Positions 918 through 32,059 of a stretch of DNA of 64,000 nucleotides are shown one piece after another. The DNA is from Candidatus Omnitrophota bacterium (GTDB lineage: Bacteria; Omnitrophota; Gorgyraeia; Gygaellales; Profunditerraquicolaceae). The notes beneath the pieces were generated by a model. That model had not been told where the DNA came from and made no database searches. It worked only from the letters and a program-made list of their open reading frames with translations. The position numbers and the translations under genes are program-made. Location of the stretch: NCBI GenBank assembly GCA_043812955.1, contig JBDRLN010000066.1:64885-128884 (forward strand), given 5' to 3'. The number at the start of each line of letters is the position of its first letter. Position 1 is the first letter of the stretch.

Positions 918-920
918 AAA

Positions 921-1532: not shown

Positions 1533-1538
1533 ATTATT

Positions 1539-1991: not shown

Positions 1992-2007
1992 AGCAATCAA
2001 AAACCTT

Positions 2008-2040: not shown

Positions 2041-2065
2041 ATACGGGTTAATTGAGGTGAAAAAT

Positions 2066-3490: not shown

Positions 3491-3491
3491 T

Positions 3492-3606: not shown

Positions 3607-3629
3607 GTTATATATACGGAGGTTTAATA

Positions 3630-7518: not shown

Positions 7519-7530
7519 GAATAGTAAATT

Positions 7531-8361: not shown

Positions 8362-8370
8362 AGGATAGGT

Positions 8371-9600: not shown

Positions 9601-9603
9601 ATT

Positions 9604-10461: not shown

Positions 10462-10660
10462 TTTAAGCGGCGATCTTTTTATCGCCGCGGCCTTTGTCCT
10501 TGTACCGGTAGGGATCTTTATGAAGCTTTTAGGGATTGATGTTTTATTTTGGGTGATTACCCCGTCCGCGATAATTAAATTAGCGGGTTTGAGCCTACTG
10601 TTTAGTATTACTTTGAATTTGCATGATTTAGTTGTTTTTGAAATTTGGAGCAAAAAATAA
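10445..10660 (+). CDS. Small hydrophobic membrane protein (hypothetical)
   Basis: ATG with an AAGGAGGAG RBS overlapping the kinase stop. Two predicted TM helices. Short ORF, so weak. Confidence 0.3.
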   Translation: MKKTYNLSGDLFIAAAFVLVPVGIFMKLLGIDVLFWVITPSAIIKLAGLSLLFSITLNLHDLVVFEIWSKK

Positions 10661-10874
10661 AGAACTGGATTGCGCTTTTTAAGACCATCCAGATTTACCG
10701 GCGATGTCTAAGTTTGGGCAATCAGAAGGTTTCTCTTTGGGTACGACCAAAAAAATCAAATTTCCCGAAGGAATATAATTGTTTTTAAGTTAGCTATAGA
10801 AAATGTTTGCTACAAAACCGGGAAAGTTTCCCTGACCCGGTTTCGACTTGACTTTTTTTATGTGAAAGGCGATT

Positions 10875-11249
10875 ATGGGCATTGAAGAAAGAAGAGAACA
10901 TAAACGGGTATACATAAGGTTTAAGGTTGAATGCCGGGGAAAAAAATATTGGCAATATGTAGACGCGATGAATATTTCCGCCGGGGGTATGTTTATATTC
11001 ACCGAAAAGCTGGAACCGTTGGAAACGAAATTAGAGGTTATGTTTGAATTCGGCGACGGGATCGGCAAACTGATCAAGGCGGATGCGGTTGTCGCTTGGG
11101 TCAGGGAGAAAACGATAGAAGATATTAATGGTGATATAATCAAGCCGGCGGGTATGGGGCTGAAGTTTACCAAAGTCAGTCCTTTAACGGCAAAAGAATA
11201 TATTAATCAAGTGGTAGCAGCATCTAATAAGGAGAGTGGTGGTGGATAA
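10875..11249 (+). CDS. PilZ-domain c-di-GMP-binding protein
   Basis: RxxxR (RREHKR) and D/NxSxGG (NISAGGMF) motifs of the PilZ domain. Confidence 0.75.
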   Translation: MGIEERREHKRVYIRFKVECRGKKYWQYVDAMNISAGGMFIFTEKLEPLETKLEVMFEFGDGIGKLIKADAVVAWVREKTIEDINGDIIKPAGMGLKFTKVSPLTAKEYINQVVAASNKESGGG

Positions 11250-11823
11250 GCATACGATCCTGCTTGTTGATGATGAAAAGAATATTTTAAATAGTATCTC
11301 CAGGTTATTGCAGGATGATAGCCGGGAGATAATCACGGCGGAGAATTCGCGGGAGGCCCTGGAGAAATTAAAAAGTATAGGCGGGGTGGACCTGGTTATC
11401 TCTGATAACCGGCTCCCAGATTTCTCGGGAATTGATTTTTTGATCAAGGTAAGACAGCTCTATCCGAATACGATCCGGGTACTTATTACCGGATATCCCG
11501 ACGTGGAATCAGTCATCCATGCCATCAATAAGGGCCAGGTCTACCGGTTTATTACCAAGCCCTGGGATAATGAAGAGATCAAGGTAATTGTAAAACAGGC
11601 CCTGGATTTTTATGACGTATTAAAGGATAACCGTTCGCTTCTTAAGATCGCCCGCCAGCAGGCAGATCTGTTAAAGAGCGTCAAACAGAAATATCCTGAT
11701 ATCTCCCAGGCTGAATTTGATAAGAGCAGCCTGTATATAATAGATGAAAAAGTGATCTCTGCGAACCTCTCGGGGTTTATGCAGAAATATTACAGTCAGG
11801 ATAATACAGAGGCCAAGGATTAA
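11236..11823 (+). CDS. Response regulator receiver protein with a C-terminal domain of unknown function
   Basis: LLVDDE...D55-equivalent (VISDNRLPD)...K (ITKPW) receiver signature. GTG start with an AAGGAGAG RBS. No DNA-binding or sigma54 domain. Confidence 0.75.
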   Translation: MVVDKHTILLVDDEKNILNSISRLLQDDSREIITAENSREALEKLKSIGGVDLVISDNRLPDFSGIDFLIKVRQLYPNTIRVLITGYPDVESVIHAINKGQVYRFITKPWDNEEIKVIVKQALDFYDVLKDNRSLLKIARQQADLLKSVKQKYPDISQAEFDKSSLYIIDEKVISANLSGFMQKYYSQDNTEAKD

Positions 11824-11824
11824 T

Positions 11825-12661
11825 ATGGAAGGACTGGAATCAAAACTTATTAATTGTGGGTTGATTACTACCCAACAGGCGCTGCAGGCTGAAAAAGAGG
11901 CGCTGGACTGTAGGAAGTCCTTAAGCGCTGCTCTGGTAAAATTAGGGTTCGTAACGGAAGAAGGGATGGCTATATTTTTTGCCGACGAATGTTCGATACC
12001 GTATGTCCGGGTTTCAGATTATGTTATTTCTAGGGAAGTACTTAAAATACTGGATGAGAGTTTCTGCCGGCAGTATATGGTTATTCCGGTATTTAAGATA
12101 GGAAAAAGTTTATTTGTAGCCATGAATAACCCGTTGGATACCGCTCTAACGGATAACCTGTTTAAAATAACCAGCCTGGATATCGAGCCTTTGATTGCCT
12201 CCGGGACAGAGATATTAAGAAATATAAACTTGTATTATGGGCCGCAGGAGAAGAATTTCGAGGTTGAGAAATTCATAATTAATCAAAATACCATTAAGTG
12301 TGTGCCTTTTCATCGGGAATCGGAGAGGCTGAATTTAAAAATCCCGGTCAGTTTAACCATAGATGATAAAAATCTTGCTTTGCGCGGACTTTCTTCGGTA
12401 GATGGGTTTACCCAGAATATATCCAATGGAGGGACGGCTATAGGCCTGGAGGTATTTTTTTTTCTTCCTAAGGGGGTTAATTTAATCCTAGAGTTTAAGC
12501 TCTTTCAAGACCTAAAATCTACGGAAGAAATAATCAAAGCCAAGGGCCAGGTGGTCCATTACTCTATGGGTAAAAATAAGAAATTTTTACTTGGGGTACA
12601 ACTTGCTGACCTAGATAGGTCAGATCGGAATAAGCTTTTAAAACTTGCCAGCCAAAGATAA
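11825..12661 (+). CDS. T2SSE_N (GspE N-terminal/MshEN-like) domain fused to a PilZ domain
   Basis: N-terminal ~140 aa match the GspII_E N-domain fold sequence (CGLITTQQALQA...VFKIGKSLFVAMNNPLD). C-terminal RESER...NISNGGTAIG matches PilZ motifs. Confidence 0.7.
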   Translation: MEGLESKLINCGLITTQQALQAEKEALDCRKSLSAALVKLGFVTEEGMAIFFADECSIPYVRVSDYVISREVLKILDESFCRQYMVIPVFKIGKSLFVAMNNPLDTALTDNLFKITSLDIEPLIASGTEILRNINLYYGPQEKNFEVEKFIINQNTIKCVPFHRESERLNLKIPVSLTIDDKNLALRGLSSVDGFTQNISNGGTAIGLEVFFFLPKGVNLILEFKLFQDLKSTEEIIKAKGQVVHYSMGKNKKFLLGVQLADLDRSDRNKLLKLASQR

Positions 12662-13031
12662 TCTTTCTTTGAAAATACCTAAAATCATATTATTCAATAT
12701 TGTAGTTATTGCCTGTCAGTTTATCGCTCCCGGGTTAAATTACGCCCAGACCAGCGAGATAGTTAGGGAATTGGCCCTGGAGAGGGCCAAAGAAAAAAAA
12801 CCTACCCTCGAGACAGTTAAGAAGGATCAAGTAAAAAAACCAGAAAAGCTAAAATTAGCCAAACCTTTGATAAAGACTAAGCAGCCCAAAGTTGAAGAGA
12901 TTAAGCCAGTCAGCCGTAAATCCAATATGGGCCTGGAAGAGCCCAGGATGGCCCAGGAATCCAACGCTCTGGATAAAGAGCTGAAGGATTGGTTGGGTAA
13001 GCTTAAAACCATAGAATCTGTTCTTCCATAA
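12645..13031 (+). CDS. Lys/Glu-rich secreted hypothetical protein
   Basis: ORF with a hydrophobic N-terminus and then a low-complexity K/E/P region. Start codon uncertain (TTG in the track). Confidence 0.4.
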   Translation: MPAKDNLSLKIPKIILFNIVVIACQFIAPGLNYAQTSEIVRELALERAKEKKPTLETVKKDQVKKPEKLKLAKPLIKTKQPKVEEIKPVSRKSNMGLEEPRMAQESNALDKELKDWLGKLKTIESVLP

Positions 13032-13150
13032 GGTCATCCCCCCCCAATGATTTCTAACTTGAAAAGCCGTACATATATGTTATACTTAAATCAGCAGAGT
13101 ATTTTATTAGTTTAAGCCTTTTCGAAGGGGGGGATGCGGATAAAAAAGGC

Positions 13151-13178
13151 TTGACAAAAATACTTATTATGCTAAAAT
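13151..13178 (+). promoter_or_regulatory. Sigma70-type promoter with extended -10 for pilA (TTGACA-N16-TGcTAAAAT)
   Basis: Read directly, 24 nt upstream of the AGGAGGTG RBS. Confidence 0.6.
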
Positions 13179-13201
13179 CATTTTCTAAGGAGGTGACTGA
13201 T

Positions 13202-13549
13202 ATGAAAAGACATGGTTTTACGTTAATCGAACTAGTTATGGTTATTGTCATCATAGGTATATTAGCGGCAATTGCTATACCCAGGTTTGTCAGCTTAAGG
13301 GAAGATGCTCTGAGGGCAGCTTGTGAGGCTAATGCTGGAGCGTTAAGGGCGGCTATTTCTAATTTTTACGCCAACGCTACACTGCATAATGTTAATGAAA
13401 CCGACGCTTGGCCGGCGGATATTAGCAACGCAACGTTTATAAGTGCTTACATGCAATCTGCACCAGCAGCCCCAGTTAATGGCACTTGGGCGGCAGCTTA
13501 TTCTAATACTACAGGTATATTAAACATGACTCAAGCTTGCGGAAGTTAG
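13202..13549 (+). CDS. pilA: Type IV major pilin (prepilin, class III signal peptide)
   Basis: MKRHGFTLIELVMVIVIIGILAAIAIP: the G/F cleavage-methylation site and Glu+5. 115 aa. Strong RBS. The track's ORF start at 13151 is upstream of the true start. Confidence 0.9.
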   Translation: MKRHGFTLIELVMVIVIIGILAAIAIPRFVSLREDALRAACEANAGALRAAISNFYANATLHNVNETDAWPADISNATFISAYMQSAPAAPVNGTWAAAYSNTTGILNMTQACGS

Positions 13550-13680: not shown

Positions 13681-14619
13681 TTAATAAAAGGGATAACTTT
13701 TCCTTCTTTCTTTGATGTAGGCGCTCTTTTCTAAATCGGCTTTGGCAAAATCTTTTATCTCGGATACGATCTGGATCGTCTGGGCAGGCGAGGTAAATTG
13801 GTAGGATTCATTAGTGGTTATTCCGATATGAATCTTAAGGATAGGTTTTTTTTCAAAATCACCCTTACGGTTTTTAAGCAGCACTCCATCCCTCTCCCGG
13901 TCCTCTCCATCATAAAAAGAAGCAATGCCTGCGTCAAAGTCATGGATTATTTTATCAGCAATTGAGTCAATGCTATCTGCCAGGCTTAAAAATATATAGT
14001 CGTCGTCTTGGGGATGAGAAAGAAAGTCTGATGGGGATCCGCGTTCTTTAAGCGCCCTCAAGATTATTGATCCGGCATACCGGATCACATCATCCCCGCG
14101 TTTAAATCCATAGCGCTGGTTAAAATCCCTTAATTTATCCATGTCCGCGTAATAAATAGCAAAGGGGTTCTTGCCGGCTATTCTTTTTTCTAATTCTTTA
14201 TATAGGCTGGATTGTCCGGGAAGTTTAGTTAAGGGATGGATGTCCTGCTGCCTGGCTATCCGGTATAAATTAAGTTTAACCTTTAATAATAGTTCATTTT
14301 CGACAGAGTTGCGGGAAATATAATCATCCGCTCCGGCATAGGTGATCCGGGCCTTATTTAAAAGATCGGAGTCAGAAAGGATGAATAATACCGGTATATA
14401 GCGGAAGAGAAAATTTTTCTTCAGGGCATTGCAGATCTCCAGGCCGTTTATATTCAAGGATTGGAATTCTGAAATGATCAGGTCGGGAAGTTCTTTTTCC
14501 AGGCCGGCGAGGGCAGCATCCTGGTCAGGGTAGACCTTGACCTCATAGTCTTCTCCTAAAAGCAGAAGGACAATCAGGTTTTGTAATGCAGGCTCGTTTG
14601 CTATTAGGCTTATTTTCAT
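13681..14619 (-). CDS. Receiver + GGDEF-family domain protein with a degenerate active-site motif (PQDDDY in place of GGDEF)
   Basis: N-terminal receiver (DLIISEF). GGDEF-domain landmarks LTKLPG, DMDKLRDFNQRYGFKRGD, IGITTN. The signature pentapeptide reads HPQDDDY. No RxxD I-site. Confidence 0.7.
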   Translation of the reverse strand: MKISLIANEPALQNLIVLLLLGEDYEVKVYPDQDAALAGLEKELPDLIISEFQSLNINGLEICNALKKNFLFRYIPVLFILSDSDLLNKARITYAGADDYISRNSVENELLLKVKLNLYRIARQQDIHPLTKLPGQSSLYKELEKRIAGKNPFAIYYADMDKLRDFNQRYGFKRGDDVIRYAGSIILRALKERGSPSDFLSHPQDDDYIFLSLADSIDSIADKIIHDFDAGIASFYDGEDRERDGVLLKNRKGDFEKKPILKIHIGITTNESYQFTSPAQTIQIVSEIKDFAKADLEKSAYIKERRKSYPFY

Positions 14620-14894: not shown

Positions 14895-15038
14895 TAGATT
14901 TTTTTTATTTTGGTACGGGATAATCGGTGCAATCAGAGGTTAGCGGTGTGGTTTTTAAAAATTTTTCAGGCAACCTCGGTGATTTCTCTTGACATAATTC
15001 TTAAGTAATTTATAATTCTAATATAAGGAGTATGAAAA

Positions 15039-15422
15039 ATGGCGAGAGTTATGATAGTAGATGACGCGCTTTTTATGCGTAAAATGCTGACTAAGACCTT
15101 GACCGAAGCCGGCCATGAAGTCTTGGCTGAGGCAGGCAATGCCAAAGAAGCCGTAGAGAAATATAAAAAGTTCAAACCGGACCTGGTAACTATGGACATT
15201 GTAATGCCATTGATGGAAGAGATGGATGGCATTGGCGCGGTAAAAGAGATCATTAGGATTGACCCCAAGGCCAAAATCCTGGTTTGTTCGGTAATGGGCC
15301 AGCAGTCGCTGGTAGTGGAAGCTATTCGTTCCGGCGCCAAGGATTTTGTGATTAAGCCTATCAAGCCTGAGAGGCTGATCGAGGCGGTGAATAAGGCGCT
15401 GATGTCCCAAGATAAAAAATAA
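15039..15422 (+). CDS. cheY: Chemotaxis response regulator CheY
   Basis: Single receiver domain, 127 aa, with D-D...D (TMDIVMP)...K. A TTGACA-N16-TATAAT promoter lies ~50 nt upstream. Confidence 0.85.
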   Translation: MARVMIVDDALFMRKMLTKTLTEAGHEVLAEAGNAKEAVEKYKKFKPDLVTMDIVMPLMEEMDGIGAVKEIIRIDPKAKILVCSVMGQQSLVVEAIRSGAKDFVIKPIKPERLIEAVNKALMSQDKK

Positions 15423-15425: not shown

Positions 15426-16034
15426 ATGGCTGATATTGTTTTCAGTGATTCCCAGAAGGACGCCTTGCAGGAGATTGGCAATATCTGCGCCGGTAATGCC
15501 GCTACCGCCCTTTCCCAATTACTCAATAAAAAAATAAATATAGTTGTCCCTCGTATCCTCCTGGTCCGCCTGGAAGATGTCCCTATGGTGGTTGGAGGGC
15601 CGGATACGTTAGTAGCCGGGCTGATACTTAAGGTTTTAGGGGACCTGCCCAGCCATATCCTTTTTATTTTTTCCCAAAGAGACGCACTTATCCTGGCTTC
15701 GTTGTTGACTGGTAAAAAAGTTACTGAGTCCGGTATACTAGGGAGATTAGAGACATCTGCCCTTAAGGAGATCGGGGTTATCTTAGCCAGCTCTTATTTA
15801 GGCGCCTTAGGCAATTTTTTGGGGATGGGGTTAGTTCCGGCGGTCCCGGAATTAATTGTGGATATGGCCGGTTCAATGATAGACTATATTTTGATCGAAT
15901 TAAGTTGTAATTCGGAATTTGCCTTACTGATTGAATCGGAATTCAAGGAGCCTCAAGCTTCGATAACCGGACATTTTTTTCTCATTCCTAATGTCAGCGC
16001 CTTAGACGCCATACTTAAAGCCATAAATAAATAA
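15426..16034 (+). CDS. cheC: CheC/CheX-family CheY-P phosphatase
   Basis: Two CheC motifs (EIGNICAGNAATALS and EIGVILASSYLGAL). Confidence 0.75.
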   Translation: MADIVFSDSQKDALQEIGNICAGNAATALSQLLNKKINIVVPRILLVRLEDVPMVVGGPDTLVAGLILKVLGDLPSHILFIFSQRDALILASLLTGKKVTESGILGRLETSALKEIGVILASSYLGALGNFLGMGLVPAVPELIVDMAGSMIDYILIELSCNSEFALLIESEFKEPQASITGHFFLIPNVSALDAILKAINK

Positions 16035-17974
16035 TGATTCAAGACAGTTACCGTGAATTATTTTTCTCCGAATCCCAAGAGTATCTAAACAGTATTAATA
16101 AATGTTTATTGCGGGTTGAAACTAATCCCGGGGATTTTGAGGCTATAAATGAGATATTCCGCTGTATGCATACCTTAAAAGGTATGTCTGCCACTATGGG
16201 ATATGATAAGCTCACCCAGCTTTCCCATCATACCGAGGATCTTTTGGATGAATTGCGCTCTAAGAAAAAACAGGTCAGCGCGGAGATCATTGATGTGCTC
16301 TTTAGTTGTGTAGATATTCTAGAAAAATTAATAGACGCGGCAAAAGCCAAGAAAGAGCCTGGAGTGGATATTTACGGGTATATTGATAAAATAAAAAAAA
16401 TCATAATTAGGGAAGGGCAATCTTCACCTCTGGAGCCTAGGACTCAAGGCCTAGAGTTTAGCCCGGAGGAAAACTCGAGGCTAAGGGAATTAAAGGCCAG
16501 CGGTTTAAATATATTTAAAATAAAGATTACCCTGATTAAAGATTGCACTATGAAAGAGGCCCGGGCCTTCCTTTTGCTGACCAGCCTTAAAAAAATAGGC
16601 GAATTAATTAAGTCCATTCCTTCGGTCGAGGCCTTGAAGGAGGGTAATTTTGATTTATCTTTTACCTTTATTTTAGCTCTCCAGAAAGATGACAAGGCAG
16701 TCCACCAGAAATTATTGGGCGTAGCTGAGGTAGATGAAGTATCTATTGAGCCTGTAGTGATAGAAGACAATGCCTCCGGAGATATTCAGCCGCAGGCAGC
16801 GACAACTTATACCAAGAAGATCCAGAGCATGCGTATTAGCGTTGATAGATTGGATAAGATTATGAATCTGATGGGGGAATTAGCCATTGCCAAGATCCAG
16901 CTGATCCAGATTGTCCAGTCTTTTAAAATCAAGGAATTGGAGGAAGTTAGTTTTACCCTGGAACATCTAACTTCTACGCTTCAGGATGAAATAATCCAGA
17001 CCAGGCTTCTGCCGTTAGCCTATATCCTGGATACTTTTCCCAGGTTGGCCAGGGATTTGGCCAAGAAACAGGGTAAGAATATTGATCTGGAGATTATCGG
17101 CAGTGAAATAGAATTGGACCGGGTGGTTTTGGATGAGATAGGCGATCCGTTAGTCCATCTTATCCGCAACGCCATTGACCACGGTATTGAAGATCCCGAA
17201 GAGAGAAAAAAAACCGGTAAACCTGAGCAGGGGAAGATTCTTATTAAGGTAAGCCGCCAGAAAGGGCAGATATTTATTGAAGTTATTGATGACGGCAGAG
17301 GGGTTAATTTTAATGAAGTAAAACGCCTAGCCATAAAAAAAGGGATTATCAGTGAAAAAGACGCCGGTGATTTAGATGAAAAAAGGGTTTTGGATCTGAT
17401 CGCTCTGCCGGGTTTTTCTACTGCCGGGAAAATTACGGATATTTCCGGCCGGGGTGTCGGGCTGGATGTGGTTAAAGCCAAGATGGAGGTTTTAGGCGGG
17501 AGGGTGGATTTTGAAACTAAACAGGGTTCAGGAAGCCGTTTTATCTTAATTATTCCTTTAACCCTGGCTATAATTAAGGCTATGCTGGTCCGGGTCAGGA
17601 ACGAGATATTCGCCGTTCCTTTGATGAGTATAAGAGAGACTATCAAGATTGAAGAGAAAGAAATCAAAGTTTTACAGAGTTTTGAAGTAACCCGGGTCAG
17701 GGATGAGATCATCCCGATAATCCGCCTGGAGAAGAGCATGGGCTTAGAAGGCCTGGTAGCGGATAAAAAAGAGATCGAAAGGCGTAAATCAGTAGTAATT
17801 ATTGAGCATGGTAAAAAAGTTTTAGGCTTAGTGGTAAGCCAGGTAATAGGTGAACAGGACATAGTGGTCAAGCCTTTAGGCTCTATTATTAAGAAGACTA
17901 AGGGTATTGCCGGAGCAACTGTGTTAGGGGATGGCCGGGTTGCTTTAATCCTGGATACTATGAGTTTAGTATAA
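16034..17974 (+). CDS. cheA: Chemotaxis histidine kinase CheA
   Basis: HPt (HTLKGMSATMGY), dimerisation, HATPase (GRGVGLDVV) and a C-terminal CheW-like domain. Confidence 0.9.
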   Translation: MIQDSYRELFFSESQEYLNSINKCLLRVETNPGDFEAINEIFRCMHTLKGMSATMGYDKLTQLSHHTEDLLDELRSKKKQVSAEIIDVLFSCVDILEKLIDAAKAKKEPGVDIYGYIDKIKKIIIREGQSSPLEPRTQGLEFSPEENSRLRELKASGLNIFKIKITLIKDCTMKEARAFLLLTSLKKIGELIKSIPSVEALKEGNFDLSFTFILALQKDDKAVHQKLLGVAEVDEVSIEPVVIEDNASGDIQPQAATTYTKKIQSMRISVDRLDKIMNLMGELAIAKIQLIQIVQSFKIKELEEVSFTLEHLTSTLQDEIIQTRLLPLAYILDTFPRLARDLAKKQGKNIDLEIIGSEIELDRVVLDEIGDPLVHLIRNAIDHGIEDPEERKKTGKPEQGKILIKVSRQKGQIFIEVIDDGRGVNFNEVKRLAIKKGIISEKDAGDLDEKRVLDLIALPGFSTAGKITDISGRGVGLDVVKAKMEVLGGRVDFETKQGSGSRFILIIPLTLAIIKAMLVRVRNEIFAVPLMSIRETIKIEEKEIKVLQSFEVTRVRDEIIPIIRLEKSMGLEGLVADKKEIERRKSVVIIEHGKKVLGLVVSQVIGEQDIVVKPLGSIIKKTKGIAGATVLGDGRVALILDTMSLV

Positions 17975-17982: not shown

Positions 17983-20121
17983 ATGAAAGAGATATTCGCT
18001 TTAGATATCGGCACGCGCAAGGTTATGGGCATTATTGCCCGTAAAAACGAAGACATGATAGAGGTATTGGATGTTGAGGTTATAGAGCATTCTGCTCGGC
18101 CGATGTTTGACGGGCAGATCCATAGTATTGATGAAGTAGCCAAGATTGTCAAGTTGATCCGGGAGAGGCTGGAGTTGCGCCTAAATAAAAAATTAACTCA
18201 GGTGGGGATTGCGGTTGCCGGAAGAAATCTAGTGACTTACAAAAGCAGGGTCGGTAAGGCTTTCGATTCTAAGCAGGAGATAACCCAAGACCTGGTAAGG
18301 GAGCTGGAGCTTGAGGCGGTGGATAATATCGTATCTGATTCGGGTAAAGATCTCTCGGAGTTCTATTGTGTAGGCTATAGCCCGGTTTATTATGAATTAG
18401 ATTCAAACCGAATCTCCAATCTTATCGGCCATATTGCCTTGTCAATAGCGGCTGAGGTAATAGTTACATTCCTGCCGCGGTTGGTATTAGACAGCATGTT
18501 CTCGGTTTTAAAGAAAGTCGGCCTTGAGGCGACCAATATAACTTTAGAGCCTATCTCGGCTATTAACGTGATAATCCCCGCGGAGATGCGTAATCTAAAT
18601 ATAGTCTTGGTAGATATCGGCGCGGGCACTTCGGATCTGGCCTTGACTAAAGCCGGGGTTATATTCGCTTACGGCATGGTCCCAGAAGCCGGAGATGAAG
18701 TAACTGAGAGGATCTCGGAAGTCCTCCTGGTGGATTTTGCCACAGCCGAAAAAATAAAGAGGTCATTAAATACTTTAAATGAAATTGAATATGAGGATAT
18801 TTGGGGCAGGCTGCGCCACACCCACTCCGTAAGTTTAAAACAGTTTTTAATGCCATCAGTAAAAAGATTGGCTGAATTGATCGCCAAGGCCGGCCTGGAA
18901 TTAAATGGGGGTATCCCCCAGGCAGTAGTAGCGGTAGGCGGAGGCAGCCTTACTTTTAATTTAATGGAAGAACTGGCTTCGAGCTTTGGCCTGCCCTTAG
19001 ATAAAGTAGGCATCCGTCTTCCTCAGGCGATAAAGAATATCCAGGATGCCCATAAGAAATTAACCGGCCCGGAAGCGGTTACGCCCATCGGTATTGCCCA
19101 GATGACCGCTAATATCCAGGGGTTGCGTTTTATTGAAGTTGAAGTTAATGGTAAAAAGAACAAGATACTGGATTTTTATCAAAAAAAGGACGTCATGGGG
19201 GCGATTGCTATTTCCGGAGTGCTTAATAATAAAAAGTTGTATGCCCGGCCAGGGATGGCCTTGACCGTTAAGGTTAACGGCGAATTAAAAATTATTAAAG
19301 GAACAATGGGCGAACCAGCCAGAATATTTTTAAATAGCAGGTTGGTTGCTTCTTTATCCGAAAAGATAAACGACGCCGACAAGATTGAATTTCAGGGGGC
19401 TGTGGATGGCCTTGATGGCACAGCAATGATCAGGGACCTGGTGCAGATAGAACCCCTTGCCGTTATCTTTAACCAGGAGATCCTACATATTGTTGCCCCT
19501 ATAATTATGGACGGCGTTGAGGTAAGCTTAGGCGTTGCGGTCTATGACCGGGCGGAAGTTTTCCACTCAATATTAAAGGTAAAGGATATTTTAAAATTTA
19601 AGGATATAAAATTAGAGGATTTATCCCAGAGGCAGGTCCTGGTAAATATCAACGGGACGCCGAAGATCTTAACCCAGAGGAATTTTACCCTCCTAGTAAA
19701 TAATAATATTGCGGATTTAGATACTGAAGTTAAAGAAAATGATACGCTGGAGTTTATCTACCAAACACCTACTTTCTATAGGATAAAAGATATAATCGAC
19801 TTGCCCGAAGGGCCTAAAAAATTAAATATCAATGTTGATGGTAAAGACTTGGAGATAGCTGTAGAGCCGGTGCAGGTCTTTATGAACGGCCACCAGGTCA
19901 GTCCTGAGGAGTTTGTAATCGATGGGGCTGACATCCGGGTCTACTCTTTAAGGGAGCGCCAGATTTTACTTTCTGAGATATTCCGCTATATTGACTTTGA
20001 CCCCCAGAGGGCGGTAGGCAAAAGGATGAAAATATTAGTTAATGACCAGCCTGCAGGGTTTACCACTCTTTTAAAAGAGGGCTCAAGGGTGAATATTATT
20101 TTGGAAGATAGGGAGGAATAA
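17983..20121 (+). CDS. FtsA/PilM-like actin-fold ATPase fused to ~4 tandem ThiS/MoaD-like beta-grasp repeats (712 aa)
   Basis: N-terminus ALDIGTRKV...VDIGAGTSDLAL...AEKIKRSL follows the FtsA/ASKHA phosphate-1/2/adenosine motifs. The C-terminal 350 aa contain repeated V(K/N)(V/I)NG...(D/N)xD(K/T)(I/L)E(F/I) units. Confidence 0.6.
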   Translation: MKEIFALDIGTRKVMGIIARKNEDMIEVLDVEVIEHSARPMFDGQIHSIDEVAKIVKLIRERLELRLNKKLTQVGIAVAGRNLVTYKSRVGKAFDSKQEITQDLVRELELEAVDNIVSDSGKDLSEFYCVGYSPVYYELDSNRISNLIGHIALSIAAEVIVTFLPRLVLDSMFSVLKKVGLEATNITLEPISAINVIIPAEMRNLNIVLVDIGAGTSDLALTKAGVIFAYGMVPEAGDEVTERISEVLLVDFATAEKIKRSLNTLNEIEYEDIWGRLRHTHSVSLKQFLMPSVKRLAELIAKAGLELNGGIPQAVVAVGGGSLTFNLMEELASSFGLPLDKVGIRLPQAIKNIQDAHKKLTGPEAVTPIGIAQMTANIQGLRFIEVEVNGKKNKILDFYQKKDVMGAIAISGVLNNKKLYARPGMALTVKVNGELKIIKGTMGEPARIFLNSRLVASLSEKINDADKIEFQGAVDGLDGTAMIRDLVQIEPLAVIFNQEILHIVAPIIMDGVEVSLGVAVYDRAEVFHSILKVKDILKFKDIKLEDLSQRQVLVNINGTPKILTQRNFTLLVNNNIADLDTEVKENDTLEFIYQTPTFYRIKDIIDLPEGPKKLNINVDGKDLEIAVEPVQVFMNGHQVSPEEFVIDGADIRVYSLRERQILLSEIFRYIDFDPQRAVGKRMKILVNDQPAGFTTLLKEGSRVNIILEDREE

Positions 20122-20240
20122 AATATACTCATACTCCGCTACGTAAGCGCTGCCGAAATTATCTGCGATAATTTTGGCGCACTTCGCGGAGTCTCACTAA
20201 ATGCGCCTATGGCGCTAAATTGTGTTCGAGGAGGTTAGAG

Positions 20241-20516: not shown

Positions 20517-21356
20517 ATGGAAGAAGAAAAATTCACCGGCAGTGGTAATATAAAAGAGCTTGACTTAAAGAATGTCATTGAATATATCCGTACCAAAAGA
20601 GGCGTTGATCTATTGAATTCCTACCGGAGTACTTTTGTATTTCGCCGTCTGCGTATCCGGATGCGGGAAGTCAAGGCGTTAAATTATGCCGAATATACCG
20701 ATATAATTGAGAAAGACCCTAAAGAATTCAATAAGTTTTTGGATGTGTTATCGATTAATGTCACCGAATTTTTTCGCGATAAAGAGGTATTTGACGCCTT
20801 CAGGAATATTATCTTGCCCGGTATAATTAAGAATAAAGAAAGCAATAAAGAGAATATTATCCGGGTCTGGTCAGCAGGCTGCGCTTCAGGGCAAGAACCT
20901 TATTCACTGGCTATTATTTTAAAAGAGGCATTAGCGGATAAAAAAGATTTTTTAATCCGAATAACAGCCACAGATATAGATAGCTTGGCTTTAGAGAATG
21001 CCGATAAGGCAGAATATAACATCAGTGATTTTAAAGAGATAGATAATAAAATCCTTGAAAAATACTTTACCTTAGCTTATAATGGATGTTATAAGTTAAA
21101 TGACGAGATAAAGAATATGGTTTTATTCCGGCGGAATAACCTTATCAGCGAGCCGCCGTTGCATTTTATAGATGTGATATTCTGCCGGAATGTCCTGATT
21201 TATTTTAAACGTGAACAGCAGGACCTGATATTTCAAAAGTTTAACCAGGCGCTTAACCGGCAAGGATTCCTGGTGATCGGCAAGACTGAAATGATCTGGA
21301 GCAAGGATTTATTCGCTGCGGTAAATACCCGGCAGAAGATTTATCAGAAGTTATAA
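20517..21356 (+). CDS. cheR: Chemotaxis protein methyltransferase CheR
   Basis: SAM-binding VWSAGCASGQEPYSLAI plus the CheR N-domain. Confidence 0.9.
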   Translation: MEEEKFTGSGNIKELDLKNVIEYIRTKRGVDLLNSYRSTFVFRRLRIRMREVKALNYAEYTDIIEKDPKEFNKFLDVLSINVTEFFRDKEVFDAFRNIILPGIIKNKESNKENIIRVWSAGCASGQEPYSLAIILKEALADKKDFLIRITATDIDSLALENADKAEYNISDFKEIDNKILEKYFTLAYNGCYKLNDEIKNMVLFRRNNLISEPPLHFIDVIFCRNVLIYFKREQQDLIFQKFNQALNRQGFLVIGKTEMIWSKDLFAAVNTRQKIYQKL

Positions 21357-21391: not shown

Positions 21392-21763
21392 ATGGCAAAA
21401 GTATTAGTGGTAGATGACGCTTTATTTATGCGCAAGATGCTCTCGGATATCCTTAAAAAAGAAGGTATTGAGATTTGCGGAGAGGCGGAAAACGGAAAAG
21501 ACGCGATCGGAAAATACCAGCAGTTAAAACCCGATCTGGTAACTATGGATATAGTAATGCCGAAAGTAGAAGAGATCGACGGGATCGGCGCGGTCAAGGA
21601 GATTATCAAGATAGACCCTCAAGCCAAGATTATTATGGTCTCGGCTATGGGCCAGCATTCCTTGGTAGTTGAGGCGATCCAGGCCGGGGCAAAAGACTTT
21701 GTTACCAAGCCTTTTCAGCCCTCCCGGGTGGTGGAGGCGGTAAACCGGGTTCTGGGAGGATAG
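21392..21763 (+). CDS. cheY: Chemotaxis response regulator CheY (second copy, ~70% identical to the first)
   Basis: Receiver domain. Strong AAAGGAGGT RBS. Confidence 0.85.
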   Translation: MAKVLVVDDALFMRKMLSDILKKEGIEICGEAENGKDAIGKYQQLKPDLVTMDIVMPKVEEIDGIGAVKEIIKIDPQAKIIMVSAMGQHSLVVEAIQAGAKDFVTKPFQPSRVVEAVNRVLGG

Positions 21764-21770: not shown

Positions 21771-22274
21771 ATGCAGGAAGAGATTATGGAAGATAAAATT
21801 ATAGAAGTTGAAATGGCCCAAATGGCCGTGGATAATGCCCCGGCAAGGTTAGTCACCCGGGGTTTAGGGTCTTGTTTAGGCATCACCATTTATGACCCGG
21901 TTAAAAAAATCGGCGGCATGGTCCACGCTATGCTTCCGGATATAGAAATAGCCAAGATTCGGACTAACCCGGCCCGTTTTGTTAATTCATCGATCAAGAA
22001 AATAGTTGAGGAGTTGGAAATAAGGGGTTGTTTAAGAAGGGGGTTGGTGGCTAAAGTGTTTGGCGGGGCGCATATGTTTAGTTTTATTGTTTCCGATGGA
22101 TCTTTGAATGTGGGTCTGAAAAATGTTGAAATGGCTGAATCCATTTTAAATGAAATGAAGATAAAGATTGCGGCCCAGGAGACCGGGGGGACATTTGGAA
22201 GGACTATTGAACTAAATTTGGATAACGGGAAGGTTTTGATTAAAACAGTCTCTTGGGGAGAAAAAGAGGTGTAA
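21771..22274 (+). CDS. cheD: Chemoreceptor glutamine deamidase CheD
   Basis: GLGSCLGITIYD...GGMVHAMLP, the CheD catalytic Cys/His region. Confidence 0.8.
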   Translation: MQEEIMEDKIIEVEMAQMAVDNAPARLVTRGLGSCLGITIYDPVKKIGGMVHAMLPDIEIAKIRTNPARFVNSSIKKIVEELEIRGCLRRGLVAKVFGGAHMFSFIVSDGSLNVGLKNVEMAESILNEMKIKIAAQETGGTFGRTIELNLDNGKVLIKTVSWGEKEV

Positions 22275-22297: not shown

Positions 22298-23332
22298 ATG
22301 GAAGAAAAGATTCGCGTATTAGTGGTTGATGATTCTTTTTTAATGCGCCGGGTTATATCGGACATGATAAATAATAGCCCGGGTTTTGAAGTCGTTGGCA
22401 AGGCTAAAGACGGTAAAGAGGCATTAGTTAAAGTGTATTCATTAAAGCCCGATATTGTAACCCTGGATATAAATATACCCTTGATGGACGGCCTCTGCGT
22501 ACTGGAAGAAATAATGAGGAAACAGCCCACTCGGGTTATTATGGTTTCAGCTTATACCCGCGCGGGTACCAGCGCGACCATCAAGGCCCTGGAGTTGGGG
22601 GCTATAGATTTCATAGCTAAGCCGTCAGGAGAAATATCCCTGGATTTAAATAAGCTCGAGCAAGAAATAATTTCTAAATTAAAGATGGCTTCCCGGGTTG
22701 ACTTGGATAAGTTTAGCGCTTTGGCTAAGCCGGTTAAGAAGCCAGGGGCCGTTATTAAGAAGATAGTGGTTATCGGAGCATCTACCGGCGGGCCAAAAGC
22801 GGTTTTAGATATAATGCAGTATATCCCTGTGGAAAACAATGCGGCATTTATTATAGTGCAGCATATGCCTAAGGGTTTTACCTTAAGTTTTGCCGAAAGG
22901 ATATCCTGGCAGACCGGGATCAAGACTAAAGAGGCTGAAGAAGGGGATGAGATTATGTCAGGTAAAGTCTATGTAGCCCCGGCGGGTTTCCACTTAGTTT
23001 TGGAAAAGGGCTATTCCGGCGTAAAGGTTAAATTCACCGAAGATCCTTTGGTAAATTTTGTCCGGCCTTCAATTGATGTAACTATGACTTCTGTAGCGGG
23101 TATATTCGGTAAAGATGTAATAGGGGTAATTTTGACTGGTATGGGTAAAGATGGAATGGAAGGGGCAAGGAGTATAAAGTCTAAGGGGGGCTATGTTGTT
23201 GTCCAGGATGAAAAGACTTCAGTTATCTGGGGGATGCCTAAGGCGGTTCATGATGCAGGCCTAGCGGATAAGGTTTTGCCGTTATCCCAGATCCCCAAGA
23301 TGATTATGGAGCGCATCGAGAGAGAGGAATAA
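22298..23332 (+). CDS. cheB: Chemotaxis response regulator protein-glutamate methylesterase CheB
   Basis: Receiver domain plus methylesterase domain (GASTGGPKAV; catalytic S/H/D context). Confidence 0.9.
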   Translation: MEEKIRVLVVDDSFLMRRVISDMINNSPGFEVVGKAKDGKEALVKVYSLKPDIVTLDINIPLMDGLCVLEEIMRKQPTRVIMVSAYTRAGTSATIKALELGAIDFIAKPSGEISLDLNKLEQEIISKLKMASRVDLDKFSALAKPVKKPGAVIKKIVVIGASTGGPKAVLDIMQYIPVENNAAFIIVQHMPKGFTLSFAERISWQTGIKTKEAEEGDEIMSGKVYVAPAGFHLVLEKGYSGVKVKFTEDPLVNFVRPSIDVTMTSVAGIFGKDVIGVILTGMGKDGMEGARSIKSKGGYVVVQDEKTSVIWGMPKAVHDAGLADKVLPLSQIPKMIMERIEREE

Positions 23333-23336: not shown

Positions 23337-23945
23337 ATGTATTCCAGGTTGAATTTGATCCAGATGGATGTATTAAAGGAGTTGAGCTCGATCGGTTCAG
23401 CTAACGCCGCTACCGCTCTTTCTTCGTTGGTTTCCAGTAGAGTTGAAATTACAGTGCCTCAGGTGAATCTGGTGCCTTTGGAGAATATATCCAGTTTGTT
23501 CGGGGGTATGGATAAGTTACTTTTTGTGCTGGATACGGAGTTAAAAGGCGATATATCGGGGAGGATATTTATATTCCTGTCTCTTGAAGACGCCAAGGGC
23601 CTGGGGGGGATGCTTCTGGGAAAATCTCCGGAAGAAGTGGATATCAGAGATGAGATGTTCCTTTCCTCGCTTAAAGAATCCGCCAATATACTGGGGGGTT
23701 CTTATATATCAGCCCTGGCTGAGATGACCAACATGCTCATACTTAACTCAACGCCTTCTTTAGCTATTGATATGGTGGGGGCGGTATTGGATTTTATCTT
23801 TATTAAGATCGCCCAATATTCCGAAGAGGTGCTTTTTATCAGGAATTCACTTCAGGTTCACGGCAAGAACCTGAACAGTTTAATAATGTTATTCCCGGAC
23901 AATGAATCACTTATCAAAATTTTTGAGACATTAAATGTAAAATAA
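23337..23945 (+). CDS. cheC: CheC/CheX-family phosphatase (second copy)
   Basis: ELSSIGSANAATALS and ESANILGGSYISALA motifs. Confidence 0.7.
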   Translation: MYSRLNLIQMDVLKELSSIGSANAATALSSLVSSRVEITVPQVNLVPLENISSLFGGMDKLLFVLDTELKGDISGRIFIFLSLEDAKGLGGMLLGKSPEEVDIRDEMFLSSLKESANILGGSYISALAEMTNMLILNSTPSLAIDMVGAVLDFIFIKIAQYSEEVLFIRNSLQVHGKNLNSLIMLFPDNESLIKIFETLNVK

Positions 23946-24051
23946 AGGAGCGCGTTCATATCCCGACTGCGTCGGGATCTCACTAAATGCCCGCCTGAGA
24001 GTGAGGCAGGCGCCAAAAAGCAGCGCAAAATTGTGTTCGAGGAGGTATAAG

Positions 24052-24552
24052 ATGGCTACGGAGAAATCCAAGGAATTTCAATTAGTTGTTTTTACTCTTG
24101 GCGATGAAGAATTTGGAGTGGACATTGCTCAGGTGAGGGAGATCGTAAGGCTGGTCCAGATCACCTATCTGCCTAAAGCCCCTTCTTTTATCGAGGGCGT
24201 GGTAAACTTAAGAGGGCAGGTCTTGGCGGTTATTGACCTTTCTAAAAGGTTAAACATCCCTTCTAAGACCCGGGGAGAACAATCCAGAATCATAGTGGTA
24301 GAGGTAAGCGATAATACTGTTGGTATGATCGTAGATTCTGTCTCTGAGGTATTACGTTTGTCTTCGGATAATGTAGAGGGGGTTCCTAGTTTAGTTGAGA
24401 CTGAGGTGGCGGAACACTATATACGGGGAGTGGGAAAATTAAAAGACAGGCTTTTGGTCCTTTTGGATTTGAACCGGGTCTTGAGCCAGGAAGAAGTCCA
24501 GCATGTGGATCAACATGTAAAAGTGGCCGTAAATAGCATAAAGCCTGAATAA
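24052..24552 (+). CDS. cheW: Chemotaxis coupling protein CheW
   Basis: Single CheW domain (FGVDIAQVREI...IEGVVNLRG). ATG at 24052 behind a GAGGAGGT RBS. The track's upstream extension covers the conserved leader. Confidence 0.85.
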   Translation: MATEKSKEFQLVVFTLGDEEFGVDIAQVREIVRLVQITYLPKAPSFIEGVVNLRGQVLAVIDLSKRLNIPSKTRGEQSRIIVVEVSDNTVGMIVDSVSEVLRLSSDNVEGVPSLVETEVAEHYIRGVGKLKDRLLVLLDLNRVLSQEEVQHVDQHVKVAVNSIKPE

Positions 24553-24652: not shown

Positions 24653-26314
24653 ATGATGAGATTAAATATACGGGTCAAGACTATTGGTCTATTTGTAGTT
24701 TTGTTTACGTTGGGCGTTTTATCCCTGACATTTTTTTCGGTTTTTCAGGTCAATAAGGGTTTTAAGAATGAGTTGAATATTAAAGCAGAGGTTATTGCCA
24801 AGAGTTTGAATTCAGCCTTAAACCAGCCTCTTTCTCTGGGCATGACCGCTACTATCAAATATCTACTTAATTCCGCCAAGGAGACCTCCGATGATTTGAT
24901 CTATGCCCACGTAATTGATGTTTCTGGATTATGTGTTGCCAGTACTGATAAAAGCCTTCCCGGTAAGGTGCTTAAAGAAAATCCATTTGAAAAGGCTGCC
25001 TTGGAAGTTAATGGGTTTAGCAGTGTAACTGTGCCAGACAAAATAAATCTCTTTGAGGTAAGGATACCGATCATATCCGAGGATATCGGTAAATTGGGTA
25101 TTTTGCGTATAGGTATGACTACTTCTATTATGAATAAGCTAATCTCTCAGATGACCAAGGTGATCATATTAATAGGTATAATTATACTTATAATAGGTGG
25201 GGTGATATTTAACTTTATTATAACCGGCGGAATAATAAAGCCTCTTAAGCAGGTAGTATTAATCTTAAAGACCATGGTAACTGGAGGGGGAGATCTGACC
25301 CAGCGTATAGTAGTTCAGACCAATGATGAAATCGAGGATATGGCTACCTTGTTCAATACTTATATAGAAACGCTGCATAATATGGTAGCCAAGATCAGGC
25401 TTACCGCGGGAAGCGTATCCGGTACAGCTGAACAGATGTCGTCTTCTACGCAGGAGATGAATGCTTCTACTCAGGAAGTCTCTAACGCGATAAATCAGGT
25501 TAGTAGGGGCGCGACTACTCAGGCCGGCAGGATCGAAGAAACTTTTGAAATCATGGAGAGATCAGCGATCAGCCTTAAACAGGTAGTTGCAAATGCCCAG
25601 AATACCAGTCAGGCTATCGGTCAAACTAGTGCTAAGGCTGAAAATGGCCGTATTGTAGCCCAGGAGGCAGTGGAGAAGATAGAGCGTTTAACCAATACCG
25701 TGGTTGAAACTACTAAGGTTATTCAGGACCTGGGCCAGATGTCTCAGCAGATAGGCGAGATTACCGAGACCATAACTTCTATAGCTGACCAGACTAATCT
25801 TTTGGCCCTTAACGCCGCTATTGAAGCTGCCCGCGCCGGTGAAGCTGGCAGGGGCTTTGCGGTTGTTGCCGAAGAGGTACGTAAACTTGCCGAAGGTTCA
25901 GCTGAGGCGGTAAGAAAGATAGGTGGCCTGATCAAGGCTATCCAGAGCGAGGCTAATAGGGCGGTAAACGCTATCGAAATTAGCTCTAAGGAGGTTCTGG
26001 AGGGTAAGGTTCAGATAATTAAAATCTCAGAAGTTTTATTCGAGATTAATAAATCGACCAAGGAAGCTAATAACCTAGCTAATCAGATCGCTTCAGCCGG
26101 CCAGGACCGCGTAGTAGAGATGGAGGGGGTGATTAAAACCTTTAATGAAGTAGCTAATATTGCCAAGGAATCAGCTACTACCGCTCAGGAAGTATCTTCA
26201 ACCACCGAAGAACAGACTGCTTCAATGGAAGAGATGTCTGCTTCTTCCCAGGAATTAGCCCGTCTGGCAGTGGATTTAAAAGAATTAGTAGGTAAGTTTA
26301 AATTGAAGGAATAA
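24653..26314 (+). CDS. Methyl-accepting chemotaxis protein (two TM helices, HAMP, MCP signalling domain)
   Basis: Highly conserved signalling hairpin [38 protein letters not shown]. Confidence 0.9.
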
Positions 26315-26319: not shown

Positions 26320-27279
26320 TTAGTCTTTACGCCTATCTTTTACAAATGCACTTCCCCCTAAGGTTTTAGCGTAGGATTTTAGTTCTGTAGCAATCTGGAT
26401 TACTTCGCCGATGTGCGAGAATTTCGATTGTTCATTAGTGGCGATACCAATAGAAACGCTTAAAAGAGGGATTCGACAAAAATCTCCCCTTCTATTTTTA
26501 GCGATAATATATCCTTTTTCTTTGTCCTCTTCGTTGTAAAAAGAGCCAATAGTCTTGTCAAATTCATCTACAATATCCTGGGATATTTTTTCAATCAGCT
26601 CAGGTACGCAGATGAATACAAAATCATCGCCTCCGATATGGCCCAAAAAGTCCGTTGGCTTACCTATTTTCTCTAAGACATTCATTATGATCGATGCGGT
26701 ATGGTTAATGATCTGGTCGCCTTTATCAAAGCCGTAGCAATCATTAAACTCTTTGAATTTATTTAAGTCTAGGTATCCTATAGCTAACGGTGCGTTAGTT
26801 TTTATTCTCAATTCCAATTCTTTGAGTAGGGAGACATTCCCGGGCAGCTTAGTTAAAGCGTTTGCTTCTAAATCGCGGCCCAGGCGAACGAGTGAGGCCT
26901 TGATTCTTACCAGAAGTTCTCCGGCATCAATCGGGATTTCAATGTAATCGTCCGCTCCGGAGTAGATGCCTTTTATTTTATCCAGGGGATTTCTTTGGTC
27001 CATTACCAGAATGACAGAGATATGCCGGAATCGGAAATTACCGCGTATAAGTTTGCAGATTTCAATGCCGTTAATATAAGGGGCCTGAAAATCCGAGATT
27101 ATTAAATTGAATTGTTCCTTTTTAAGTAAGTCTAAGGCATCGGTCTGGGTGAGACAAATTTTTACATTATAGTTTTCTCCAGTCAAAAGCGCCAAGATGA
27201 ATTCCCGAACCTCGTCATCGTGGATTACGATCAAGATGTTGTTTTGGCCTGGCGTGTAGTTGCCGTTAATAAGGTCCAT
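26320..27279 (-). CDS. Receiver + GGDEF-family domain protein, paralog of 13681-14619, active-site motif GGDDF
   Basis: Same architecture and landmarks (LTKLPG, GFDKGD, IGIATN). Motif reads HIGGDDFVF, with Asp in place of the catalytic Glu. Confidence 0.7.
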
Positions 27280-27283: not shown

Positions 27284-27907
27284 TTATTTTAAGGATTCTA
27301 GCAATTTCTTGCAGCCATCCTGAATAAATTTAACTGATTCTGGGGTTAAGGCAAGATAGAATGAACCGTTTAAGGTATGTTCTTGTTCTTCAAAAATCGC
27401 CTCGATCAAAAGTACATACTCGGTTTTATTATCAGGGTTAAAGAGCATATTCAAGATTTGTTGAGCCGGGCCACTGATCATAGTGGGTATTGATGGGATA
27501 ATAATCATTCGCAGCATCATGCTTAATGCCCCTAAATAGGAGGATATGACTACATTGCCCACCTCTTTAATTAAGGATAGGCCCATTTCGGTTTGCCGGC
27601 CGCTTTTTTTACCATCTTCTATCAAATAGCATATGTCAATGAGTTTAAACGCGCTCTTCTCATCCATTAAAAAAAGAATGTTACCTTTGATTCCGGTTAA
27701 GATATCGCAGGATACGCTTATAACGATCTGGTCAATCAGCAGTTTATTCAAAACCATTCCTCCGGGTAAGAACTCTAGGGATGGGAGCGTAAGGCCGATC
27801 TTCTTGCCCAACATTTGTGAAAGCGCAATACTCCCCTGCCCGGCTGATATGCTGCCAACTTCTCTTAAAATATCCATTTCATCTTGCATATTTATCTCCT
27901 CTAGCAC
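27284..27907 (-). CDS. CheC/CheX-family phosphatase (third copy), co-directional with and 4 nt upstream of the GGDDF gene
   Basis: [16 protein letters not shown] and [16 protein letters not shown] motifs. Confidence 0.7.
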
Positions 27908-31105: not shown

Positions 31106-31117
31106 GTTAGTGTTGCC

Positions 31118-32002: not shown

Positions 32003-32059
32003 GGAGTCAAAGAGTTCATAGTTCGTAGTGCGTAGTTAAAGCAAAAAGGTTTTAAGATC

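Follow-up and report, generated by a model that had tools for sequence, protein, structure and literature searches.

The window analysed here, a stretch of 64,000 nucleotides from a Candidatus Omnitrophota bacterium (assembly GCA_043812955.1, contig JBDRLN010000066.1, positions 64,885 to 128,884 of the forward strand), carries a chemosensory (che) operon in which the gene directly behind cheA encodes a protein of 712 aa. The first half of this protein is an actin-fold head of the FtsA/PilM class and the second half is a tail of tandem beta-grasp repeats. We found no earlier description of this architecture, an FtsA-like head with a chain of about five beta-grasp domains, in a cytoplasmic protein of a single chain, and we suggest that chemosensory operons probably have in it an optional accessory that has so far gone unrecognised, present as a component in some chemosensory systems. 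For the more specific role of a Che-associated, ATP-dependent scaffold or adaptor, belief and doubt are about evenly balanced.

An actin-fold head joined to a string of beta-grasp repeats

An FtsA/PilM-type head had been read in the initial annotation from the motifs LDIGTRKV, DIGAGTSDLAL and AEKIKRSL. All three motifs are present, and Pfam, NCBIfam, a profile search of the PDB and structure prediction agree on the assignment of residues 1-376. In Pfam, FtsA (PF14450) matches at 3.3e-12, with MreB and PilM below threshold. The NCBIfam model TIGR01174 (ftsA) aligns residues 4-370 to its positions 2-367 of 371 at 6.9e-27, and the PilM, EutJ and MreB models of the same collection score far below it. 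Against the PDB sequences, a profile built from 44 homologues retrieves FtsA chains at 9e-20 over residues 5-357, followed by PilM and MreB at about 1e-6. A Foldseek search with the AlphaFold2 (AF2) model of the protein, which has a mean pLDDT of 87.8, gives the same order, with FtsA first (E about 1e-27, TM about 0.72), then PilM (about 1e-18), and then MreB, EutJ and DnaK. The AF2 model also contains an SHS2-type 1C insertion of beta-alpha-beta-beta order at residues ~84-165. Such an insertion sets FtsA and PilM apart from other actin-fold proteins.

For divisome FtsA the head scores below the cutoffs, with 94.5 bits in TIGR01174 (cutoff 175.85) and 55.7 in NF007009 (cutoff 409), and its identity to solved FtsA structures is about 19%. 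PilM_2 (PF11104) gives 22.3 against 27 and TIGR01175 gives 36.2 against 133, below the cutoffs for PilM. An EutJ- or Hsp70-type chaperone, the alternative that had been named beforehand for this domain, is contradicted by NF011660 (29.4 against 182) and TIGR02529 (24.4 against 152), and by the low ranks of EutJ and DnaK, far below FtsA and PilM. We conclude that the head is an actin fold of the FtsA/PilM class with an SHS2 1C subdomain, and is neither a divisome FtsA, a pilus PilM nor an EutJ/Hsp70 protein. Across 78 members of the family, drawn from distant taxa, conservation reaches at least 85% in the phosphate-1 (D8-G10-T11), phosphate-2 (D211-G213-G215-T216) and adenosine (G319-G321) motifs, and nucleotide binding by the head has therefore very likely been kept.

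The tail, residues 378-712, is a polyubiquitin-like string of four full ThiS-type beta-grasp repeats (U1-U4) flanked by two half-repeats (U0 and U5; Table 1). Repeats were detected with hhalign between sub-alignments of the 78-member family alignment; a BLAST comparison of the tail with itself detected none, so that profiles and structure were required. U1-U4 are mutually homologous (probability 98-99%, E 1e-14 to 1e-18). U0 matches the full units weakly and through its first hairpin only (E ~5e-5), and U5 matches the second halves of U1-U4 at 1e-11 to 1e-13. Tandem ThiS/MoaD-like repeats had been predicted, and Pfam, hhalign and Foldseek all bear this out; the predicted unit length of ~45 aa was too short, since the full units measure 56-68 aa.

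A unit is built from a hairpin with the pattern h-x-V-x-V-N-G-x-x-h-x-h, a second segment with the pattern h-h-h-N-G-x-x-V ... D-G-D-x-h-E-h, and a short helix, which is the ThiS pattern minus the helix between beta2 and beta3. On the whole protein, Pfam ThiS (PF02597) scores 27.5 bits against a cutoff of 22.5, with its best stretch at residues 535-592 and its best single match within U3. Pfam scans of single units were mostly negative, with weak ThiS matches only for U3 (5.6e-4) and U5, and U5 taken together with the preceding helix aligns to positions 24-70 of the ThiS model. For the tail, Foldseek returns linear tetra-ubiquitin first (7e-8), followed by tri-ubiquitin and an E. coli multi-ubiquitin domain protein (to 2e-5), at a poor global TM, as expected of beads on a string. 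The best structural matches of the repeats are ThiS, MoaD, SAMP1, RnfH and linear tetra-ubiquitin. Gly-Gly occurs neither at the C terminus of the protein, which ends NIILEDREE, nor at any repeat boundary, and we therefore regard the repeats as built-in domains and not as conjugatable modifiers.

Head and tail are found together throughout a large family. A search with residues 378-712 against 1.84 billion representatives (E up to 1e-3) returned 452 clusters at 50% identity, and in the best 150 matches the module nearly always lies at ~380-715 of proteins of ~700-730 aa. This nearly fixed position suggests that head and tail are a near-obligatory pair. Shorter matches resemble fragments, or variants minus one or two repeats, and the long members (744-796 aa) have internal low-complexity inserts or N-terminal extensions, possibly from mis-called starts, with no extra domains. 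With each GTDB species represented by a single genome, the number of loci that encode a relative is at least 595, and the locus counts given below refer to the best 80 of them. These 80 come from Omnitrophota, PVC, Goldbacteria, Spirochaetia, unclassified bacteria, Methanosarcinaceae, one Thermotogae metagenome-assembled genome (MAG) and many Bacillota, the last including Lysinibacillus, Brevibacillus, Sporosarcina, Terribacillus, Ruminiclostridium, Caloramator and Thermoanaerobacterium.

The protein of the window has an identical NCBI entry, named 'MAG: cell division FtsA domain-containing protein [Candidatus Omnitrophota bacterium]'. The matches listed include over 100 relatives of full length that share 55-94% identity with it and are mostly labelled Omnitrophota, the full-length homologues having E = 0. 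Labels across databases are inconsistent and include FtsA, PilM, MreB, rod shape-determining protein, actin-like ATPase and SHS2 domain protein. The family is large, fixed in architecture and uncharacterised, and already stands in databases under generic or wrong names. A literature search, with subscription journals outside its coverage, found no description of the architecture or of its che linkage, and a 2007 survey of the beta-grasp fold does not mention a fusion to FtsA; the initial statement that the architecture is unrecognised in chemotaxis thus agrees with the chemotaxis and beta-grasp literature found.

Linkage to che genes and members away from them

Linkage around the homologues was scored by tblastn with the Che proteins of the window. 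In 20 of the 80 loci che genes flank the homologue, always with cheA upstream, and these loci belong to Omnitrophota, PVC, Goldbacteria, Spirochaetia, unclassified bacteria and Methanosarcinaceae. A CheC-like gene of ~150-206 aa usually stands between cheA and the homologue, with stop and start codons that often abut or overlap. This intervening gene is present in L001, L002, L004-L006, L008, L009 and L083-L085, and absent from the window and L003. Adjacency to cheA extends to five further loci outside the best 80 (L081-L085), and so recurs across distant taxa. Downstream of the homologue, nine Omnitrophota-like loci (L001-L009) share the order comFB-cheR-cheY-cheD-cheB-cheC, which L010 does not have, and the arrangement was confirmed in three Omnitrophota contigs annotated by Pfam (L083-L085). 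The adjacency of comFB and cheR is accordingly seen in the window and in all twelve of these loci. An Elusimicrobia MAG (L082) has the order PilM-PilO-secretin-CheW-CheR-CheY-CheB-CheA-gene-CheC-CheC-CheD-CheY, and the cultured archaeon Methanolobus tindarius DSM 2278 (L081) has CheY-CheB-CheA-CheC-gene-CheR-CheC-CheC-CheD.

The archaeal locus allows a closer comparison. Methanohalobium (M. evestigatum) and Methanomethylovorans have the collinear cluster CheY-CheB-CheA-CheC-CheR-CheC... in which the gene is absent, and their cheA orthologues are 58-65% identical to that of Methanolobus. Outside its own clade the Methanolobus protein has bacterial nearest relatives at ~40% identity (unclassified bacteria, Elusimicrobia, Omnitrophota). 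The simplest reading is that a single gene was gained in Methanolobus, or lost in the sister genera, exactly after cheC. A gain or loss of one gene at that precise spot points to selection for its co-expression with cheA and cheC. Since the sister genera run the same che cluster without it, the gene is accessory and dispensable for the core pathway. In che clusters of Methanosarcinaceae we also noted conserved open reading frames (ORFs) of ~331-343, 147-175, 208 and 201 aa without a Pfam match, downstream of cheD/cheC (14765-18260 in L081, 12290-14123 in L086 and 12822-15940 in L087); these may be archaeal Che accessory proteins.

A number of observations weigh against a role bound to chemosensory systems. 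About 58 of the 80 loci encode the full-length architecture with no che genes nearby; they come from Bacillota (Bacilli and Clostridia), from a single Thermotogae MAG and from a few MAGs without classification. The gene stands alone in Bacilli, with flanking genes on the opposite strand, between aroA (DAHP synthase/chorismate mutase, after ccpA and acuABC) and ytxH/DUF948 (ytxG-like)/murC; a group of Clostridia has it flanked by nth and, on the same strand as the gene, by a GAF-GGDEF gene. Mean identities are similar in all directions, at 38% between archaeal and Omnitrophota members, 37% between archaeal and non-che members and 35% between Omnitrophota and non-che members. Two members of the che-linked set, the Omnitrophota locus L083 and Methanolobus, have no pilus genes adjoining the che cluster, which bears on the proposed output, and the pTM of the AF2 model (0.57-0.66) indicates that the arrangement of the repeats is only moderately defined.

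A che-specific subfamily is not supported. A first neighbour-joining (NJ) tree grouped most che-linked members, but the bipartition appeared in 14 of 100 NJ bootstraps, with a best Jaccard of 0.9. The missing support for such a clade, together with the similar identities, suggests one family used in two contexts, with a basic activity that is probably not Che-specific; the conservation of head and tail is similar in che-linked and other members.

These observations nourish a different account, possible but in our judgement unlikely, in which the protein is a general-purpose actin-like cytoskeletal or scaffolding protein (for example of envelope, division or polarity), and che linkage reflects secondary recruitment or a favourable expression site. 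Its strength lies in the predominance of Bacillota genes without che neighbours among the sampled members, in the unsupported split between che-linked and other members, in the equal conservation of both halves, and in the sister archaea that manage without the gene. However, it has difficulty with the adjacency cheA-(cheC)-gene, which recurs with tight spacing in five or more bacterial lineages and in an archaeal genus, and with the position of the Methanolobus gene precisely between cheC and cheR, which is not easily accounted for unless there is a functional link. The general scaffold and the Che adaptor overlap and can both hold, if a generic scaffold is used by Che systems in some taxa. 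The che role may thus be one use of a more general scaffold, given the share of sampled loci without che genes. For the initial annotation, which had suggested a dedicated partner of the chemosensory array and had named conservation with che genes as a check, the outcome is mixed: the recurrent place beside cheA in several bacterial lineages and Methanolobus stands, but in view of the non-che majority and the bootstraps the protein is not demonstrably dedicated to Che, and in archaea it is an accessory.

Operon, pilus cluster and other genes of the window

In the window the gene sits within a co-directional che operon of 12 genes (Table 1), and the neighbour order first given, cheA, this gene, comFB and cheR, agrees with Pfam. 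Its start lies 8 nt past the stop of cheA, and consensus scans, the basis of all promoter and terminator calls here, found no promoter-like or terminator-like site at this junction. From the short gap and the empty junction we infer that the gene belongs to the operon and is co-transcribed with cheA, to which it is probably also translationally coupled. The sigma-70-type site ahead of the first cheY is the sole perfect match within 12.5 kb.

Table 1. Coordinates, in the window, of the gene with its domains and repeats, the che operon and the pilus cluster
Feature	Position	Strand	Basis
Type IV pilus (MSHA/T2SS-like) cluster	81-13549	+	Pfam, NCBIfam
Promoter-like site, TTGACA-16-TATAAT (12/12), 22 nt ahead of first cheY	14989-15016	+	consensus match only
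cheY (first)	15039-15422	+	Pfam
cheC	15426-16034	+	Pfam
cheA, Hpt-P2-dimerisation-HATPase-CheW	16034-17974	+	Pfam
Gene for the 712-aa FtsA/PilM-like actin-fold ATPase with tandem beta-grasp tail	17983-20121	+	ORF, ATG start
Head, actin-fold (ASKHA) domain of FtsA/PilM class, residues 1-376	17983-19110	+	Pfam, NCBIfam, PDB profile, Foldseek
U0, residues 378-424, N-terminal half-unit: beta1-beta2 hairpin 'IEVEVNGKK' and helix	19114-19254	+	hhalign, DSSP
U1, residues 425-489, full ThiS-like beta-grasp repeat	19255-19449	+	hhalign, 1e-14 to 1e-16 vs U2-U4
U2, residues 490-545, full repeat	19450-19617	+	hhalign, 5e-16 to 5e-17 vs U3, U4
U3, residues 546-608, full repeat	19618-19806	+	hhalign, 8.5e-18 vs U4
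U4, residues 609-676, full repeat	19807-20010	+	hhalign
U5, residues 677-712, C-terminal half-unit beta3-beta5, 'KILVNDQPAGFTT...SRVNIILE'	20011-20118	+	hhalign
comFB	20241 (ATG) or 20220 (TTG) to 20504	+	Pfam, 2.7e-22
cheR	20517-21356	+	Pfam
cheY (second)	21392-21763	+	Pfam
cheD	21771-22274	+	Pfam
cheB	22298-23332	+	Pfam
cheC/X	23337-23945	+	Pfam
cheW	24001-24552	+	Pfam
mcp	24653-26314	+	Pfam

Downstream of the gene, comFB probably starts at the ATG, which has GAGGAGG 7 nt upstream, and not at the TTG of the ORF list. The spacer between the two genes (20122-20240, ~120 nt) contains a long imperfect hairpin at 20133-20193 with a minimum free energy of -41.3 kcal/mol (z -3.4 against shuffles). 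It has no T-run and is therefore not a classical terminator, and Rfam matched no family in the operon, the hairpin included. The hairpin may be an element of mRNA processing or stability, or may set the ratio in which the products of the operon's first and second halves are made. One more CheC-like gene lies on the minus strand of the window at 27284-27907.

The che operon is preceded by a type IV pilus cluster, which encodes a PilM-like/PilN protein, a PilQ-like secretin, a PilB/GspE ATPase with MshEN, an ExeA-like AAA protein, a PilC/GspF platform protein, a histidine kinase and response regulator, PilZ and MshEN-PilZ proteins and a pilin. Flagellar genes were not found among the ORFs of the window that were scanned. 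The first ORF of the cluster, 81-917, matches the middle of an Amuc_1101-family PilM-like protein (model positions 268-465 of 608) and has a C-terminal PilN domain. It resembles a PilM-PilN fusion of MshI-like type; its start may have been mis-called, or its 5' part may be located ahead of the window. Pilus genes directly upstream of the che cluster are found, besides the window, in L002, L003, L008, L011, L060, L082, L084 and L085. Taken together, the type IV pilus is the likely output of the che system in the window, and the idea of an adaptor to the adjacent pilus, also raised at the outset, gains circumstantial support from these eight loci and the window.

The frequent pilus neighbours also suggest that the protein could itself be a PilM-type component of the cytoplasmic ring in the neighbouring pilus machine, and have its gene in the che operon by chance. 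Its fold is near that of PilM, the matches to PilM_2 and TIGR01175 are present if weak, some database entries bear the name 'pilus assembly protein PilM', and pilus genes adjoin many che-linked loci. We nevertheless consider this improbable. The scores fall under the PilM cutoffs and FtsA matches better; no pilN or pilO adjoins the gene, which stands between cheA and comFB; and the gene is present without nearby pilus genes in L083, Methanolobus and Bacilli. Moreover, pilus clusters have a PilM-like gene of their own, at 81-917 in the window and as a 586-aa PilM with PilO in L082, and hence the gene behind cheA is not simply a missing PilM.

Genes of cyclic di-GMP (c-di-GMP) signalling are dense around the che operon. 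They comprise REC-GGDEF genes on the minus strand at 13681-14619 and 26320-27279, in both of which the GGDEF match spans the first half of the domain only, PilZ at 10875-11249, MshEN-PilZ at 11825-12661 and the MshEN-bearing pilus ATPase at 5701-7518. The theme recurs near homologues elsewhere, with ComFB, PilZ, MshEN and REC-GGDEF in Omnitrophota and GAF-GGDEF in Clostridia. ComFB is an established family of c-di-NMP receptors, and ComFB-CheR fusions have been reported in Omnitrophota (PMC12448109), which agrees with the adjacency of comFB and cheR described above.

The remaining parts of the window call for brief mention. The regions 28258-35241 and 41792-63312 hold housekeeping genes, among them those for a sugar-binding protein, two MFS transporters, ABC permeases, a GH2 enzyme, enolase, FtsH, RnfC and a ribonucleotide reductase with a TSCPD domain. 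Sizeable ORFs without a Pfam match lie at 921-1991, 3630-5051, 12645-13031, 35452-37933, 44972-45850 and 54023-55975, and the second of these has weak matches of coiled-coil (SMC) type only.

Proposed role and comparison with known systems

In the scaffold or adaptor role, the protein would join the chemosensory machine as an optional, accessory subunit. The head would bind ATP and, by analogy to FtsA and PilM, would probably self-associate and/or clamp a short cytoplasmic peptide of a membrane-anchored partner. FtsA clamps FtsN in this manner, and PilM clamps the N-terminal peptide of PilN. The beta-grasp tail would serve as a multivalent protein-binding arm or as a spacer for a complex of CheA and CheC, the latter being the phosphatase of phosphorylated CheY (CheY-P). 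The net effect would be to anchor or organise the Che pathway or to couple it to its output, and in bacterial members this output would most plausibly be the type IV pilus machine encoded nearby, where c-di-GMP proteins (ComFB, PilZ, MshEN, REC-GGDEF) are abundant.

A bolder version, which we put forward tentatively and think unlikely to hold in full, describes a new actin-like chemosensory component shared by several bacterial phyla and, through acquisition of a single gene, by one archaeal genus. In this version an ATP-dependent assembly would form at the membrane, and the polyubiquitin-like arm would tether the baseplate of CheA and CheC. The assembly would position the array or, as a 'switch-complex' adaptor, relay CheY-P and c-di-GMP (through ComFB) to the type IV pilus motor.

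Two further identities suggested by the domains fit the data much less well. Many database entries name the protein FtsA, but that it is a genuine member of the divisome is very improbable. Residues 1-376 do find their best match in sequence and structure in FtsA, but scores and identity are as low as given above, the region of the C-terminal membrane-targeting helix is replaced by ~340 aa of beta-grasp repeats, and the neighbours are che genes and not the ftsZ/ftsQ genes of the dcw cluster. The gene also occurs in Methanolobus, and FtsA is not known to be used in archaea. The idea of a polyprotein or carrier that supplies modifiers of the ThiS/MoaD or ubiquitin type, for sulfur transfer, conjugation or defence, is scarcely credible, since the ThiS match above the Pfam cutoff is set against the absence of Gly-Gly at the protein end and repeat boundaries and of any E1 (ThiF/MoeB), MoaE, ThiG, JAB or E2-like gene among the ORFs of window positions 1-35241. 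A defence system of the Bub type was likewise rejected, as PADLOC gave only a 15-bit match at chance level.

The optional Che accessory that we propose touches a wider question. In organisms other than E. coli and B. subtilis, Che systems include accessory proteins that determine where the array is located and which output it controls, and, apart from Pseudomonas and cyanobacteria, little is understood of how these systems signal to type IV pili. If an actin-fold ATPase is a conserved member of cheA-cheC operons, it would add a new type to these accessory proteins. For annotation, the result is relevant to a family of 452 clusters that is mis-named in databases. The family is also experimentally tractable: cultured carriers include Methanolobus tindarius, M. 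vulcani, Lysinibacillus, Brevibacillus, Sporosarcina and Ruminiclostridium, and Methanolobus on one side and Methanohalobium and Methanomethylovorans on the other provide a natural comparison with and without the gene.

Among known systems, the positioning proteins ParC/ParP and PpfA offer an analogy. They are ParA-type systems that position chemoreceptor arrays, and like them the protein described here may be a nucleotide-binding accessory of che operons that could organise or position arrays. The folds differ, with a ParA/MinD P-loop on one side and an actin-like fold on the other, and Pfam finds no ParA domain in our protein. The tail recalls linear polyubiquitin and the bacterial 'multi-ubiquitin domain' proteins (PDB 7YUI, 9CD2, 9D5B), at an identity of 8-10%. 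Those proteins have no actin-fold head and a Bub-type context, in contrast to the che context and the lack of a PADLOC match found here. With ThiS, MoaD, SAMP and RnfH the repeats share the beta-grasp fold and the ThiS-family sequence signature. They differ in being fused in tandem, in having internal units without a helix between the first hairpin and beta3, and in lacking both a C-terminal Gly-Gly and a partner activating enzyme.

For the head, FtsA (PDB 1E4F, 4A2A, 7Q6D) is the best match, with an actin fold, an SHS2 1C subdomain and ATP motifs that are kept in our protein. Unlike FtsA, the protein falls far under the family cutoff, has no C-terminal amphipathic membrane helix, carries a beta-grasp tail of 340 aa, is encoded in a che operon and also occurs in one archaeal genus. 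PilM (PDB 2YCH, 5EOU) belongs to the same FtsA-like subclass of actin folds, and type IV pilus genes are frequent neighbours of the gene. PilM has no beta-grasp tail, and our protein stays below the PilM thresholds and is not encoded beside pilN or pilO. By analogy, the clamping of a PilN peptide by PilM offers a plausible working model for what the head may do.

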